A stretch of DNA of 64,000 nucleotides from the IMG/VR virus record IMGVR_UViG_3300033076_000691, positions 39,768 through 103,767 of that record; one strand, given 5' to 3'. Each line of letters starts with the position of its first letter. Position 1 is the first letter of the stretch. The translations under genes were made by a program, and so were the position numbers. The DNA comes from a virus (taxonomy: Duplodnaviria > Caudoviricetes). Positions 3,001-56,564 of the stretch are shown in pieces. Under the pieces are notes generated by a model. It made no database searches and was not told the origin of the DNA. It saw only the letters and a program-made list of their open reading frames with translations.

Positions 3001-4429
3001 TATCAACTCCTTCTTTAGCACTAACAAATTCTTTTGGTGATTCACCACCTTCTTTTTTAACAACTCCTCCATCTTTATTTCTTGCACCAGATCTATTCAT
3101 AAGTTGATTATATGCATCAGATCCAGAAAGTTTATTTGATGTTTCTTTTTGCCATCTTTCTAATGCAGAATTACGCAGTTTAATAATAACTTGTTTTCTC
3201 CAAGCTTCTAATTGTTCTGGTGTAGCATTATTAATATCATCAAGTTTTAGTCCAAGTTGACCACGAAATTCACTAGCAATAAGTTTAGGGTCTCCTGTAT
3301 ACAACGGACTGTTAATATCATATGTATCAATATACTCTTTATATGTTCTTGGTAATGTATCTTCTCCTTTTGTTAAACTACTTAAAGAAGATTTATTAAG
3401 CATTTTTTTATTTGTAAAAGTTGGATTGTATAAGCCTTTATTAATTAATGCTTCAGTTTGCTCTGGTGAAAGTATCTTACTTCTAAAGTTTGGCATATAA
3501 ACTCCAGGAAATAAATTAGAAAATAATTCATCTCTACTTGTATCTTGATTAAATGCGTTCCACATAGTCGTAGCTGGGTCTTCTGGATACATTTTATCAA
3601 ATTGATTCCGAGCATTACGGTAATCAATTTCTTTTTGAAAAAGATTTATAATTTCTTTATCTGTAAAAAAATCTTCTTTTGACGGCATCCATTGAGGACC
3701 TGCTAGTTGGTGTAGAGCATTTTGAGATACTTGCCAACCAGGACTAAAATTTTTAAATTCATAATCTTTACCTTTAATTAAATTGGGATCATATCCATCA
3801 AGTTTACCAGAACCGTATAATGAAGAATATGCATTTTTTAATCCTTCTTGTCTCCAATTAGGGTCTGTTTCTAATTGCTGAGTTGCTTCATTTAATATAT
3901 TATAATCTTGTGGATCAATATAATATGCTTCTAATCCTGCAGGTAAATAAGGATCTCCACCAAATCGTATTGGAAAGTAACTATCAATTGCAGGATTAGT
4001 TAATAAATTTTTAGTATCTTGAGTCATTATAGGAAACTTAGCAACAACTTTGGGTGCGGTATTTCCTAGTGTTGACATAATGGGTGGTAATCCCATCATT
4101 TTACCGGCTGATCCTGAAAATCTAGTAAGACCTCCCATTGATTTTTTAACCAATGATTTGTTATTTGTTGGAAATTCATCAACATAATCAGCATCTGGAA
4201 AATGATAATCTTGACCAGGATACATCATCCGTGGTTGACCAACATTTGGTTTTGCCATTACAGGATATGGTACTCCCTGCATGGTAATTGTATTAGAAGG
4301 GATACGAGTTATTTCTCCTGGATGTGCCCACTGACCATTAGGATCTACAATAATATCTTTCTTAGCAGTTGGAGCTTTTGCATTACCAAGTTTTCTAAGA
4401 GCATCAATAAGTACTTTTTTATTATGCAT
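35..4429 (-). CDS. Large modular putative virion cargo/ejection protein (1464 aa) containing a SET domain
   Basis: Directly downstream of the muzzle gene, where crAss-like phages place cargo genes; SET motifs GKGLF...GYYNHSEEPN...ATRDIKPNEELTSNY; recurrent xxGG motifs. Confidence 0.65.
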   Translation of the reverse strand: MHNKKVLIDALRKLGNAKAPTAKKDIIVDPNGQWAHPGEITRIPSNTITMQGVPYPVMAKPNVGQPRMMYPGQDYHFPDADYVDEFPTNNKSLVKKSMGGLTRFSGSAGKMMGLPPIMSTLGNTAPKVVAKFPIMTQDTKNLLTNPAIDSYFPIRFGGDPYLPAGLEAYYIDPQDYNILNEATQQLETDPNWRQEGLKNAYSSLYGSGKLDGYDPNLIKGKDYEFKNFSPGWQVSQNALHQLAGPQWMPSKEDFFTDKEIINLFQKEIDYRNARNQFDKMYPEDPATTMWNAFNQDTSRDELFSNLFPGVYMPNFRSKILSPEQTEALINKGLYNPTFTNKKMLNKSSLSSLTKGEDTLPRTYKEYIDTYDINSPLYTGDPKLIASEFRGQLGLKLDDINNATPEQLEAWRKQVIIKLRNSALERWQKETSNKLSGSDAYNQLMNRSGARNKDGGVVKKEGGESPKEFVSAKEGVDTPIYKQVSVKPSKIQGKGLFTNEPIRAGEPIGISHIRKVFNRNGELYQAPFPSTVLGYYNHSEEPNVREVDNGDHIVMVATRDIKPNEELTSNYNLSGIPDLEKPEDFKKGGSIPKLPKKKNARAYSRSLEATNRLLAEHPFFAQPKSRKNKIYDPNSQYFQDGGESGDKFKKRLMKRYPGMQGVYGAEGENLSIVKDPNYDARSVGYGDIEFQFPEGNPEIRYDNLIEENGPEYIYPNPSPNTYLALYNPRGANRGDVFLDMMHGMRDDPNYQPLLQNFEKAVRDARGEDMTWEYEGQVKNGSTQSRDRFDENYIDGQLRAQLAPGSIGMFSKGRKDYRIERKYDSPEMRAAAKDIRNYLKGKPTEEDYIEADLTPEEIQEYAKGGYIIEDISVPELTKASYGMITKAGNALSKVSKVPSPSGWVRGTTSIIPRVPPTKLTLGSIPADFPANVTFPLDIYNKDQSGYLTLYPNPKVKGVDDNTFHFLAKMPNSIEAGRAFQLMNQAFTKPNPSILEPYSLSLDSYNMLLNMGKRPDWQMTYENHIPLNYMSVNHNLFEGLEVPRGIRTGRSLKQETADEMVKRLNDMLLQKGMTEQARVFNVPGSSLKEIQVPNYRLTRQYANGGFLPKAANGLPVGLSELGKLGRAGLYKSINPAGYAILDKVKALPTELYKNTVSNETRPFRVGMSLKYGHQPHLETLLKIKRIPLEEFKKMSDKDRMQVFDQSTLSKLNDIGQRRLDAWAVGLGLPQEYGTLEQIGDNKFRMLNTAYSPDYFNDLYNDLRASGYEQGLSFGHNPLEDLTREHYRIKRQANYGNEQELDDWMRQQDAMRIAGWNPWVRSRHAKLNDLQPFSGVSTGKVWDNDQFGVMGGFGWDINDHPQGLQFTTNDIWDLNPWEKRGHAYLNPTDAAKQIAASSFFKPLQNVEALKLVGGKPFLIENNFVVDPKTYKTLDSWEEGGNVDYTLGDEVDEATMRELEKLGYTFEKI

Positions 4430-7400
4430 TATCTAGGGGAATACTGATTTTTACTATTGTTCATTTTAAGAATCATGTTTACATTATCACATTGTTTCTT
4501 TCTTAATGATACAAAATTAAGGTAGTGTCTGAATTTTTTTCTTTGCATTTCAGGCTTACCATAATTCATATTATTAGGATTCAAAATTCTTGTGAATCCA
4601 TCAGCTGCAGTAATCCATGTATTCTCACTAGAATAATTACCAAGAAGAACAGTAGTTCCTGGAACCAATGGTCCTGTAGGAGGATAGTCTGATCCAATAG
4701 GAAACTCATCTCTATTTCTTGTTATATCCCAGAATTGATTAAATCTATATTTATTTTCTTCTTTAGAGAAAAGTATATCATATGAAAACTGATTAGTACC
4801 AAGCTTTGGATACTGCAGTGATAAATTAACATCATTCTTTGGATAAAGATTTAAGTTAAGATATCCAGATACTTGTTCTGAGTTATACACTACAGCTTCA
4901 TCAAAGTTGTAATCAAGAACTTGGTGTTGATCAATACAACTATTTCCATTTCTTCTATAACATTCAAGGATATATTCCATTGATCTAGTAGTCATTACTG
5001 ACTGTCCAGTCATAATTGGAAACTCTATTTCCCATCCTCTTTGTATACCATAGAAGTTACAGAATCCATCACAGATATAATTATGTTTCCAAAGCGTATT
5101 ATTCTTAGTACTTAAGAAAATATCTTTAGTAGGAATAAGTAAATCCGGATGCCAGTCATGGAAACTTAACCAGTATTGATTTTTAGGGTCATAACTAATT
5201 GTCCATGATGCATCATCAAATAAGAATGGATCACCTAACATATAAATGTTATTCTGATTATTATCTAGTATAAAATAATCACCTGACCCATCAGAATTGA
5301 TTCCTATATATTTTACTCTACCTTTATACTCATCTTTTAGATAATAGTCTTTTTTAGCAAAATACAATATAGTACTTGAGCTATCATATGTAGCTTGACA
5401 TCCAATACCCGAAACCGGATTATCTTGATATGGGTAATTAGGGAAATCATCTGTCAGCCTGTATGGTAAGTATAAGATAAACCACCATTTCATACCAGCT
5501 TGAGAAATTTCCTGTAATCCATCTCCATAAGTAAAGATACGTCCTTGATTTTGAGACATATAGAAAATACCTACAGGTGTTGAAATAACAGCTAATCTAT
5601 TTTGTGATGAACCAAACTCATATGATTTGTCTGCATTTGATACAGCTTGTTGTGGCTGTGAAAACAATCCACCATCTCCAATAGTAATCTTAGTATTTAA
5701 ATCTGTCTCAAGTGTATCTACACCTTGGAACATTAAAGGACTTTCATTTTTAAACGTAATGAATATACCTGATTTATTAATTGACTTTACACCAGATATT
5801 TGACCTTTAAACTCCTTATAGTTATTTACAAGATAAATAAACCAACTATCTTTTGTTGCTTCAAATTGTTGCGGTAATGAATAGATGATCCTATCAGGAT
5901 AATACGTATAACATAACTTAGCAATTTCAGGATTGTAATATCTTGACTGAATACTTCCTGAAGAAAAATATTGATTGAATAGTTTAGAAACACTTAATGA
6001 ATAGTCATAGATATATTCACTCAATCTTCCCATTACATTAGGATTCATATCAAACATAGCAGGTAGATCTGTATATCTATATGGATCATAGTGTTTACCA
6101 CCTTCTCGTGTGCTTTGTTTTCTAAAGTCAATAAGAACTTCAGACTCTACAAAGAAATCTCTAACACCAGAATTAGCTAAATAAAAGTACGCATCTCTTA
6201 CAGAAAACATACCTTCATAAGCTTTACTAAGATTTCCTGTACCAATACCTATACCCTCTTTTTGATCAGTAGCGTAGTTATAATATCTTTGAGTAATATT
6301 ATTATTATTATAGTCTACATAATAATCTAGATTATAGAATGCACCTGGTAAAGCTCCTGATCCAGGAACAGAAGGGCTACTTATACTTACAGCTTCTGAT
6401 AAAAATGTTACATCATATAAAATGCTATTTACATTAAATCTACTTTGAGGTATCATGTTATGTAAATAGTAATTGTATTCAAAGCCGTCCGGTTGACCAT
6501 ATAACCAATCATAGTAGAACATCATGTTGTTCTTCTCTGTATAACGGTTAATATAGGTATCTCCACCAAATAAAATAGGACTTCTTTGTATTACTGTAAA
6601 GTAATAAGTTTTACCATCTTTTGGACATGTCCATGAAAGTGGTGGATTAGGTATGTTATAGTTAGCTAGTTGTTGCTCACATGGAGTAATTACAATTTGA
6701 CTTTCACTTCCTAATTGACCATACTGATTTCTTACTCTACCTTTTAATCCACCATAGTGACTTGCAATAGTTAAGCTAAAAGGTTTTGTTTTTTCATTTT
6801 CTTTAAAGACGGGTAAGTCTGTATTTAAAAATGCTGGGTCAGATGTATTTTGTGCAATTGTACCTAAGGTAACCAATGACTTATCCTGAACTCCAGAAGT
6901 AATTAAATTAGGTCCAATATTTACTCCATCAGAATATATAGGATTATAGTATGGTCCTGACTTTGTTCTTACTGTAACTGCATCAGATCTTTTTAAGTTA
7001 TTGATACTATAAGAATGATAGTTACCTAAATAGTCTTGATACTTTGTTACTTCTTGAAGATTGTCTCTTATGTAAAAACTATCTTCAATTCTAAATCTAT
7101 TAAGATAAGTATTAGATAGTTTAGTCATATTACTATAGTACCCATGACTTATTTGCTGTAATGCATACTGTCTATAAGGTGTAATAGTATAAAATAACTT
7201 AATTGCAATATCTGCACCTTCAGAAAAGTAATATGAAATTTGATTAAATGCACCTAGTGTTCTAGATACAGGATCTAAATATGCAAATGAAGGTAATTCA
7301 ATAGTCCCTCCAAGAGTTAACTTTGGTATTCCAGCATTATTTGCATTTGTATTTACTGTAGTAATTAAACTATCAACAGCACCAGCATATGCTGTACCCC

Positions 7401-54346: not shown

Positions 54347-54531
54347 TGTATAACCTAATCTTTAGGTTATATATGTTGCTAGGAATAGTAAAACCACAAG
54401 ACAATGTGGATGGTAGAACTATATATACCATCCACACTAAGTCTACTCATATTGAATATGCTTATAAAGGTGAGGTCATCCAATGGATCCGATCTCATCA
54501 ATTTGAGTATAATGAAGATATAGTAGATTAA
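54346..54531 (+). CDS. Hypothetical protein
   Basis: TAATG coupling to the previous gene. Confidence 0.6.
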   Translation: MYNLIFRLYMLLGIVKPQDNVDGRTIYTIHTKSTHIEYAYKGEVIQWIRSHQFEYNEDIVD

Positions 54532-54533
54532 AT

Positions 54534-54672
54534 TACTCTCATCCAATTGCAGGATGTATATTCTAATGCGACATTGTGTTTGTTAGAATAACATTGGTTA
54601 TATAATACCAGAGGGCCTTATGATGGTCGTGTGCTGGCATATATATCAAGGGTTGCAACCTTGTGAGAGTAC
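54534..54672 (+). ncRNA. tRNA-like structured RNA with an expanded middle
   Basis: TACTCTCA/TGAGAGTA closing stem stacked on a CAAGG-GTTGCAA-CCTTG T-arm-like hairpin. Confidence 0.55.
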
Positions 54673-54820
54673 AAATAGATGTAACCAGACATCGGTATAG
54701 TAATCTACTAACTATACGAAATCCAAATAGTAGATAGAGTATGTTAGCTGCAGAGGAAGAAACACATGCTTGAACCAAATAATTGACTGCAAAGGTTTTA
54801 GATTTTGTACCTACAAATAA

Positions 54821-54943
54821 ACAAAATCATGTAATGCACCATTCCTGATTCCCAAGGTCAGGCAGTTGTAGGAACTAACCATGTAATACCCATGAGGTAT
54901 CAAACTTACAGGTACAACTGAGTGCAGAGGGGTTCTGATTTGT
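54821..54943 (+). ncRNA. Twister self-cleaving ribozyme (type P1, with P5 extension)
   Basis: TAA-TGCA...CCTGA-TTCCCAAGG-TCAGG...TGCA-GAGGG core; both pseudoknots can form. Confidence 0.75.
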
Positions 54944-54987
54944 AACTTATTAATTTTTTATTTATACACTTAATTTTTATTCTGATT

Positions 54988-55899
54988 ATGAGAAATTTAG
55001 CAACCAAAGGATTGTCAATGAGTCAAGCACAATCTATTAGTAACCTATGCAATCAAAATGCACAGGAAATTGCACGTGAGATAGAATCTTACAACAACTG
55101 TAGTAAGTCAATTACTATTGGTACTCAAACATATACTTTACAAGAAGGTATACCTGTTCCAGGTGATATCATTGAGAAACTTAAGAACAAGGGTGATTTA
55201 CATGCTTGTCAAGCATTCTTGATGGAAGCTATCAGAGGTAAAGATGCTGAGATATCAAGACTCCGATCTATGAGAGTTGATACTTCACATCTTGTGGCAC
55301 CTGAAAGACCAGTTGTACCTGATTATGACATCAAAGATAATGTTGATGAAGATTGGGGATGGGAACAGTTAACAGATGCTGAGTATTCTGAGTATCTACA
55401 AGCTGAAGCAATGGCATCTCATCTTGGTCAGTTCATTCATAAGAATGGTAAACTTACTGATTTGAGAAAAGAATTACCTAAAGTTCCTCAAATTGAATGG
55501 TTTGAGGTAAAAGAAGGTGAGAAAACACCAGTTAAAGTAACTAAGCACCATATTTCTGGAGTATTACTCACATTACATGAGGAAATTGCAGAACAACATA
55601 GAACTTATGAGCAACGTGTAAACTATTTCAAAGCTAAGGTTAAGAACTTAGTTAGTGATGAGAATGCACGTATTCAGAAGGAAAATGCAGATAAAGCAGC
55701 TGAATTCTTAAACCTTGAGAAAAAACTCATGGAAGAATACAGAGTTGCATTAGATGCATACAATGGTGAGATACTTAGACTTACTATGGAGTTTAATAGT
55801 CAACGTGAGGAGGTTATTAAATTTCATGCAGGATTAAGAATTGATGTTGATCCTAGATTTCAGCATGTAATAGATATGTTTATTACAAAAGAGAATTAA
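54988..55899 (+). CDS. Coiled-coil protein (303 aa) flanked by structured RNAs
   Basis: GLSMSQAQSISNLCNQ, AFLMEAI and EA.ASHLGQFIH..G motifs; long helical C-terminal half. Confidence 0.8.
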   Translation: MRNLATKGLSMSQAQSISNLCNQNAQEIAREIESYNNCSKSITIGTQTYTLQEGIPVPGDIIEKLKNKGDLHACQAFLMEAIRGKDAEISRLRSMRVDTSHLVAPERPVVPDYDIKDNVDEDWGWEQLTDAEYSEYLQAEAMASHLGQFIHKNGKLTDLRKELPKVPQIEWFEVKEGEKTPVKVTKHHISGVLLTLHEEIAEQHRTYEQRVNYFKAKVKNLVSDENARIQKENADKAAEFLNLEKKLMEEYRVALDAYNGEILRLTMEFNSQREEVIKFHAGLRIDVDPRFQHVIDMFITKEN

Positions 55900-55953
55900 T
55901 AACATTAGGTGAGTAAGAGATAGGCACAAGCTGATTCTCTTACTCTTTATACT

Positions 55954-56211
55954 TGGTAACAGGAATTTTTCAACAACTATAGCATGGGTTAAGAACCCTT
56001 ATAAAAAGTAATTTATAAACTACATTTGAAAAACTACCGCTTCTCTCCAACTTTTACTGAGATAGAACTCATTAGTCAGACAGGTTAAGTACCTAGAGGT
56101 GTACAATTGGCTGACAAAAGATGAGACTTTATCTTTGTTTTTGCCTTTGTGGGAGAGAAGGTCTTTGAATTTGTATTTGTATTTAGCTTTAGCTATATAT
56201 TCCTGTTACCA
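55954..56211 (+). ncRNA. Candidate ~260-nt rod-shaped RNA
   Basis: Nested stems: 13 bp perfect, 9 bp perfect, plus two imperfect inner stems. Confidence 0.6.
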
Positions 56212-56234
56212 TGTAACTATATCACATTTATGGT

Positions 56235-56564
56235 ATGAAACAGTTGAATTTTAATAAGGAAGGTAATCAATGGTATATTGATTTACCTGATTGGAAAGGT
56301 GCTAAAGAAGAACTTGAAATGGTTGCTGGTGCAGACAGACTACTAGATCATTTGTCTAACAATGAAGACAAAGTATCTGTATTTGTATCTGAAGAACCAA
56401 TAGATGATTCTATTGCACTAAACAAGAAGTATAATATTAATGGTGGTGCTGATTATAAGCCTGCTAATACTGATGTTGTATTTAGTGTTTGGTTGTGTGG
56501 TGTCACTAAGTTTGTATTTGGTGGTTACATGCCGGATAAGTTGTACTTAAAAACTGCACAATGA
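56235..56564 (+). CDS. DUF6717-like protein
   Basis: WYIDLP.W.G....LEMV.GAD.LLD...WLC.VT.FVFG...P. Confidence 0.6.
   Translation: MKQLNFNKEGNQWYIDLPDWKGAKEELEMVAGADRLLDHLSNNEDKVSVFVSEEPIDDSIALNKKYNINGGADYKPANTDVVFSVWLCGVTKFVFGGYMPDKLYLKTAQ

Follow-up and report, generated by a model that had tools for sequence, protein, structure and literature searches.

Does the spacer upstream of a 303-aa gene in this phage genome encode a self-cleaving ribozyme, and if so, of which class? The stretch of DNA that was analyzed (hereafter the window) comprises 64,000 nt of IMG/VR record IMGVR_UViG_3300033076_000691. The candidate resides in a 456-nt spacer, 56 nt upstream of the 303-aa ORF, and nearby ORFs all lie on the + strand. 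Twister ribozymes carry out Mg2+-assisted, site-specific self-cleavage to yield a 2',3'-cyclic phosphate and a 5'-OH. A sequence-only reading of the window had proposed a twister at this location, and every motif that it listed was verified where it had been placed. We consider it probable, on the evidence given below, that nucleotides 54832-54932 form a type-P1 twister-class self-cleaving ribozyme. This RNA would belong to a phage-specific subfamily that lacks P3, has an obligatory P5, and carries a 5-bp P2 and a 9-nt loop L4. Cleavage would most likely occur just upstream of the 303-aa gene. Coordinates of the features are given in the table.

Table. Features of the candidate ribozyme and its surroundings, in window positions.
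Feature	Positions	Strand	Remarks
Conserved structured RNA module	54534-54672	+	~140 nt; fold z = -2.17
"Anti-P1" hairpin, GAUUUUGU (54801-08) / ACAAAAUC (54821-28)	54801-54828	+	8 bp, perfect; 12-nt loop
Offset P1-like 5' strand, AAUCA	54825-54829	+	UG between it and the cleavage site
Predicted scissile linkage, U54832^A54833	54832-54833	+	Corresponds to the U^A position of the RF03160 consensus
P2 5' strand, UGCAC	54835-54839	+	Partner 54922-26; 5 bp, not 4
C54840	54840	+	Probably pairs with G54856 in T2; 100 of 101 copies have C, 1 has U
P4 5' strand, CCUGA	54844-54848	+	Covariation
Loop L4, UUCCCAAGG	54849-54857	+	9 nt; nearly invariant
P4 3' strand, UCAGG	54858-54862	+	Covariation
P5, CAGUUGUA (54863-70) / UACAACUG (54913-20)	54863-54920	+	42-nt variable insert, 54871-54912
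P2 3' strand, GUGCA	54922-54926	+	Covariation
GAGGG	54927-54931	+	GGG 54929-31 is the T1 3' strand
AU-rich leader, ribozyme to start codon	54933-54987	+	Shine-Dalgarno absent; similar leaders after many copies
Offset P1-like 3' strand, UGAUU	54936-54940	+	Partner 54825-29
303-aa gene, downstream	54988-55899	+	ORF; weak match to phrog_2970, no Pfam family

The window was searched with Rfam covariance models using cmsearch, the check that the sequence-only reading had named, and no twister match was returned (whole window at gathering thresholds; 54500-55200 at E ≤ 10; RF03160 on the contig). Likewise, no Rfam twister of any type was found at E ≤ 10 in 15 related loci, or with RF03160 in five records with a very short P5. 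The curated threshold of RF03160 is 67.2 bits, which was reached neither by the window copy nor by any of these 20 related loci and records. The consensus of this model runs P1, UAA, P2 (cgCc), GC, a 6-bp P3 hairpin, P4 with GUCCCAAGCC, UAAA, P2', GAGGG and P1'. The phage RNA fails to match because P3 is absent, P5 carries an insert of 20-314 nt, the loop holds an extra U and the T2 letters are changed.

The same model was also run on 151 Lachnospiraceae genomes, where it found six copies with scores of 45-58 bits, all below 67.2 bits. These are the canonical type-P1 twisters of L416 and L419-L423 (related loci are designated by L and a number), and annotation at the gathering threshold would miss them because of these scores. 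One canonical copy that lacks P3 scores as low as 45.8 bits. Since RF03160 models P3 and canonical twisters also fall below its threshold, the missing Rfam match is not decisive.

The pattern AATGCACC-N7-10-TTCCCAAGG, which describes the 5' half exactly, occurs once in the window versus 0.00 times expected from window shuffles, and is present in at least 120 IMG/VR viral loci. With a tolerant parser, at least 151 distinct full copies were gathered from IMG/VR phage contigs. A family model, R1, gives the window copy 82.8 bits with each core position equal to the family consensus, and finds this single copy in the window's contig. No DNA match to 54500-55900 and no ribozyme match was found among GenBank phages. 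The core strings were absent from the relevant papers in a literature search (earlier twister alignments were outside its reach). Judged by its letters and covariation, the family is a set of twister-type RNAs scattered between genes of uncultured phages that current catalogues miss. If its members are active, a well-studied ribozyme class has a large branch in phages that current covariance models overlook.

To assess the fold, 101 copies were aligned to R1, with shuffles and slid registers as controls. Pairs are denoted below by the last two digits of their window positions, such that C39-G22 stands for 54839-54922. Paired cells amounted to 92%, versus 76% for shuffles and 30-50% for slid registers, and compensatory double changes occurred in P1, P2, P4, P5 and T1, all in the twister register. 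In P4, 98.4% of cells are paired and all five pairs show two-sided changes, with 24 complementary P4 types among the copies. P5 is similar (98% of cells paired, two-sided changes in 8/8 pairs). P4 and P2 lie 20-314 nt apart, the distal P5 sequence is unrelated between aligned copies, and the shortest P5 is reduced to CAG-UUAU-CUG (L348). The UGCA/UGCA strands of P2 (54835-38 and 54923-26) were confirmed, and the four canonical P2 pairs covary (C37-G24 is CG in 91 copies, UA in 6 and UG in 3; A38-U23 is AU in 98 and GC in 2).

A long-range pairing joins CCC 54851-53 of L4 to GGG 54929-31, where 99.7% of cells are paired. Double changes were seen at C51-G31 (UA, 1 copy), C52-G30 (AU, 3) and C53-G29 (AU, 1), and the compensated variants read UUUCC with GAGGA, UUCAC with GAGUG and UUCCA with GAUGG. 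By its covariation, this pairing is pseudoknot T1 of twister in exact register. Among the unpaired positions, AA, A54841, UU, AA, GG, A54921 and GA show little or no change, and the helices vary freely. A U precedes the predicted cleavage site (position N-1) in 115 of 120 copies and in 95 of the 101 aligned copies; the AA that follows is found in all 101. In the window copy, U^AA occupies 54832-34. Note that the homology shared with relatives begins at 54832, which is the predicted scissile position.

These data bear on the most trivial explanation, that AT-rich intergenic DNA resembles the twister consensus by chance. The absence of an Rfam match would suit it, as would a fold energy that is unremarkable for 54795-54950 (z = -0.41). 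With 0.00 occurrences expected and 151 copies having covarying helices and a covarying pseudoknot, a chance resemblance is refuted, and we assign it negligible probability. The minimum free energy (MFE) fold of the window copy includes P2, P4 and P5.

The twister architecture of the sequence-only reading is thus borne out by covariation of T1, P1, P2, P4 and P5, by letters that fit the RF03160 consensus, and by searches in the reverse direction with R1. With filters off, the best R1 matches in L420, L423 and L416 were their canonical twisters, in register. A weaker match was the canonical twister of L419, and the scores for canonical twisters are low, at 8-13 bits. Canonical twisters (for example Osa-1-4, L416:1501-1551 and L420:1501-1557) have the same element order as the phage family: P1, U^AA, P2, a T2 dinucleotide, P4 with a UCCCAAG-type loop, P2', GA plus a 3-nt T1 strand, and P1'. 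The phage family equals the RF03160 consensus at UAA, the P2 C-G, UCCCAAG and GAGGG. It shares UAAUGCA...CAAG...UGCAGAG-G with the twisters of L416 and L420, the P2 strands UGCA/UGCA being identical. Further points of likeness are the covarying T1 and the conserved A and G that flank P2 (A54834 and G54927, the positions of a sheared A-G pair). As in twister (PMC5408937), N-1 is mostly U and less conserved, and P1 is short and variable. By analogy, G54927 would be the equivalent of the conserved guanine at the base of P2, and A54928 that of the A-A partner (roles as described in PMC5408937 and PMC6154101).

The family nonetheless differs from the RF03160 consensus in several respects. P3, which the consensus has, is absent. 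P5 is always present, with large inserts, and stands where the consensus has UAAA, whereas only ~1% of annotated twisters have a P5 (PMC6154101). The conserved GC of L2 is replaced by CC, and GG takes the place of GC at the end of L4. The loop UUCCCAAGG retains 7 of the 8 letters of the canonical UCCCAAGC (the last C is changed to G) and gains one U. The base preceding the P2 3' strand is G, which pairs with C54839, versus A in 6/6 canonical copies seen. Twister-sister RNAs have a similar P4-type loop and multi-helix junction. They have been described as lacking a pseudoknot and as cleaving the opposite strand (PMC5408937), unlike the phage family with its covarying T1 and its UAA/GAGGG loop of twister. 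Because T1 covaries, the family was not filed under twister-sister, for which Rfam gave no match in 54500-55200 at E ≤ 10.

The second pseudoknot, T2, required separate treatment. It had been proposed that the usual GC/GC pairing is replaced by a compensatory, covarying CC (54839-40)/GG (54856-57). As a comparison with the consensus the replacement is a fair description, with one pair flipped, but within the family only one-sided changes occur. The covariation of C54839 is with G54922 and not with loop G54857: C39-G22 is CG in 82 copies, UA in 18 and UG in 1, without mismatches among the 101 copies. P2 therefore comprises five base pairs. The T2 candidates are complementary and nearly invariant (C39/G57 is CG in 80 copies and UG in 19; C40/G56 is CG in 100 and UG in 1). 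The single U at the equivalent of C54840 keeps a wobble pair with G, and no compensatory change was seen in the 101 copies. C54840, the likely T2 partner of G54856, is the equivalent of C14 in Osa-1-4. IMG/VR-wide scans for variants yielded one copy each of G57A (L409, with C39 kept), G56A (L437) and C40U (L413), all uncompensated, and no U49 variant. Because these variants amount to three uncompensated single copies, covariation does not settle T2; the pairing is strongly conserved and its formation is possible. When a canonical GC/GC T2 was sought in the same scaffold, the G..C matches in the scan were all unrelated coding DNA.

The fifth P2 pair speaks for a rival in which the fold is derived from twister but does not cleave, serving instead as a rigid scaffold, as a protein- or RNA-binding module with P5 as cargo, or as a 5' stabilizer. 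In Osa-1-4, G13 tolerates no single substitution, and activity fell to 0.09 with A40C, a mutation proposed to lengthen P2 through a pair with G13 (PMC5113685). In the phage family the equivalent of G13 (54839) is C or U, and that of A40 (54922) is a G paired with it. Thus an extension analogous to one that inactivated Osa-1-4 is selected here. P5 inserts of 20-314 nt that are distally unrelated resemble cargo, and the failure of all Rfam models to find the family can be read in the same direction. Against a scaffold, the best-conserved letters (A54833, A54834, G54927, A54928 and the compensated T1) matter only for catalysis or docking, and the 5' homology boundary coincides exactly with the predicted scissile bond. 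Moreover, natural twisters tolerate imperfections, and ~94% of those assayed cleaved (PMC11662667). P2 length has been called critical (PMC5408937), and was found to be unrelated to activity among 2,625 natural candidates (PMC11662667). On balance we regard a non-cleaving scaffold as unlikely, though it is the most serious of the rivals. If active, the family would offer a natural experiment on T2 and P2, in which selection appears to favor a change that is inactivating in the rice twister.

If the ribozyme cleaves, the following course of events is proposed. In a + strand transcript, P2, P4 and P5 would make a three-way junction. Docking of the loop CCC on GGG 54929-31 would then place A54833 and G54927 at the scissile phosphate, and self-cleavage would follow between U54832 and A54833. 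This would leave a 2',3'-cyclic phosphate on the upstream fragment, to which the structured modules and the hairpin at 54801-28 belong. The fragment downstream, consisting of the ribozyme body, the 56-nt leader and the 303-aa ORF, would begin with a 5'-OH. That the mRNA of the 303-aa gene would receive a 5'-OH, as previously suggested, is a reasonable proposal because 30 of the 151 copies lie <50 nt upstream of an ORF. A promoter may also be located between the ribozyme and the gene. No RtcB ligase was found in the window's own contig.

The least regular part of the window copy is P1. Its strands AAUCA and UGAUU are present, as had been noted, in an imperfect placement that leaves 0 bp abutting the site. 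In relatives, the abutting P1 3' strand is GUUC (54932-35). L122 has a 3' flank (GUUCUGAUUUGU) identical to that of the window, and L037 one closely similar; both have GAAC on the 5' side, which makes a perfect 4-bp P1. In the window copy, the 5' flank was evidently replaced. Across the 101 copies P1 is short, with 62% of cells paired and double changes in 5/5 pairs. The abutting P1 averages 2.49 bp in the family, versus 1.25 ± 0.10 in a flank-swap control.

In another rival, the family is catalytic and the window copy is crippled, its GAAC strand replaced and its flanks misfolding. This would explain why no P1 pair abuts the site in the window copy when L122, which has the same 3' flank, forms 4 bp, and decayed or truncated copies do occur elsewhere (L033, L063, L079 and L050). 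Three of the facts that oppose it concern the copies themselves: the core of the window copy matches the consensus throughout, its P2, P4 and P5 persist in the MFE fold, and in 45 of 120 copies the abutting P1 amounts to ≤1 bp. In addition, twister that lacks P1 retains close to the wild-type cleavage rate (PMC5408937), and activity is undiminished where natural P1 helices are imperfect (PMC11662667). P1 is thus dispensable in vitro, and loss of activity confined to the window copy seems quite improbable. In those four loci, the copies (L033:1590-1735, L063:2422-2584, L079:8440-8574 and L050:7440-7636) are 5'-truncated or decayed; they have lost UAAUGCACC and retain P4, P5 and GAGGG, which suggests turnover of the elements.

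A different role for the 5' flank had been advanced by the sequence-only reading, namely that the hairpin at 54801-28 competes with P1 and possibly makes cleavage switchable. The hairpin itself stands: it is perfect and appears in both MFE and centroid folds, and ACAAAAUC can also pair over a longer distance with UGAUUUGU (54936-43), so the two pairings share a strand. The switch lacks support. Nucleotides 54680-54831 have no counterpart in ~400 related loci, making the hairpin unique to this genome. A perfect 8-bp hairpin arises in 17% of shuffles of the 456-nt spacer, and is thus not rare by chance. Three such hairpins were observed in the spacer versus 0.24 expected, so the spacer is hairpin-rich. 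Because twister cleaves without P1 (PMC5408937, PMC11662667), the masking of a P1 strand gives a switch little foundation, and neither ligand binding nor another conserved structure is evident. Once cleavage had occurred, the hairpin would merely cap the 3' end of the upstream product, and we infer this simpler role for it. Regulated cleavage by this means is therefore very improbable.

For the cleaving twister that we favor, genomic context gives an indication of use. Copies are intergenic and co-oriented with genes, with medians of 402 nt to the ORF before them and 176 nt to the ORF after. Forty-eight IMG/VR loci encode a relative of the 303-aa protein, and no relative was found among GenBank phages. 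About 12 of these loci have the same core just upstream; in the remainder it is 1-2 kb away or absent. Since most homologs lack the element immediately upstream, it is not tied to this gene.

Upstream of the ribozyme lies a conserved structured RNA module. Its closing stem (UACUCUCAU/GUGAGAGUA) has 9 bp, and a T-arm-like hairpin, CAAGGGUUGCAACCUUG, adjoins the 3' strand. ARAGORN and Rfam gave no call for 54534-54672. By BLAST the module recurs in ~70 related phage loci. Of 148 twister copies, 41 have its motif, TTGCAACC, within the 500 nt that precede them, versus a background of 0.026 per 500 nt, and the module is approximately ten-fold enriched upstream of twister copies. In L021 and L163, the module ends 4 nt before the cleavage site. 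An array in L091 (3708-5106) comprises a twister (3708-3853), a GOLLD-like RNA (4367-4761) and two more twisters (4764-4843 and 4928-5106). At 100.8 bits the GOLLD-like RNA does not reach the Rfam threshold of 150, and the predicted cleavage site of the second twister lies ~10 nt past the end of the GOLLD match.

Hatchet ribozymes (RF02678) were detected above threshold, at 79-83 bits, in L029:258-395, L031:1422-1559 and L039:1217-1383, where they sit 1-2 kb upstream of twister copies. Their fold is unrelated to that of the family; they occur in the same uncultured phage group and in intergenic RNA arrays, and presumably they have the same processing role. No hatchet was found in the window or its 103.8-kb contig. 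The elements probably act as punctuation between structured noncoding RNA modules and mRNAs in long intergenic transcripts, and would by their appearance free structured RNAs and set mRNA 5' ends through self-cleavage. On the hypothesis that self-cleaving ribozymes define RNA ends in phage transcripts, the siting of the family after structured noncoding RNAs, before genes and alongside hatchets makes the role of bacterial and phage self-cleaving ribozymes testable.

With regard to hosts, a scan of prokaryote genomes returned mostly chance matches to the 5' half, with the whole element in 4 among the 120 matches listed. Full copies are located on four MAG contigs (L312, L348, L356 and L364). 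Two of these contigs are labeled Chitinophagaceae and Sediminibacterium (L356 and L364), the copies sit in Bacteroidota MAGs, and one such contig is apparently from a lake series. These copies hint at the host group and are consistent with the AU-rich leaders that lack a Shine-Dalgarno sequence.

The observations on pairing, context and hosts can be joined in one tentative reading, which as a whole we hold to be possible but well short of probable. It describes a distinct twister subclass in which the first T2 pair would have been traded for a fifth P2 pair, such that P2 and T2 would form a six-pair stack of 5+1 instead of 4+2. U54849 and G54857 would possibly close P4; the lone G57A variant would retain a pair with U49. 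Such a stack is one means by which the family could be squared with the Osa-1-4 mutants. Hundreds of copies would be carried by uncultured, probably freshwater, phages of Bacteroidota, and would be used for processing, with GOLLD-like RNAs, tRNA-like modules and mRNAs cut from long intergenic transcripts. P5 would be a free insertion site in this scheme. If the family is active, a P5 that tolerates 20-314 nt offers a ready-made insertion site for engineering.

Several minor observations concern the surroundings of the copies. Directly 3' of the 303-aa gene, 335 nt (55900-56234, + strand) contain as their sole ORF, at a cut-off of 40 aa, a 51-aa frame with a GTG start (56099-56254), and no Rfam family was found there at gathering score. 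Two contigs that carry the family have tmRNA genes (L061:69-403, - strand, 100 bits; L114:7798-8271, + strand, 71 bits). A small hairpin motif, CCUGAGCAUG...AAACUGCUC, is found directly 5' of several twister copies (in many loci, e.g., L029:1020-1062). In other relatives, this hairpin stands in the place of the twister upstream of the 303-aa homolog (L016).
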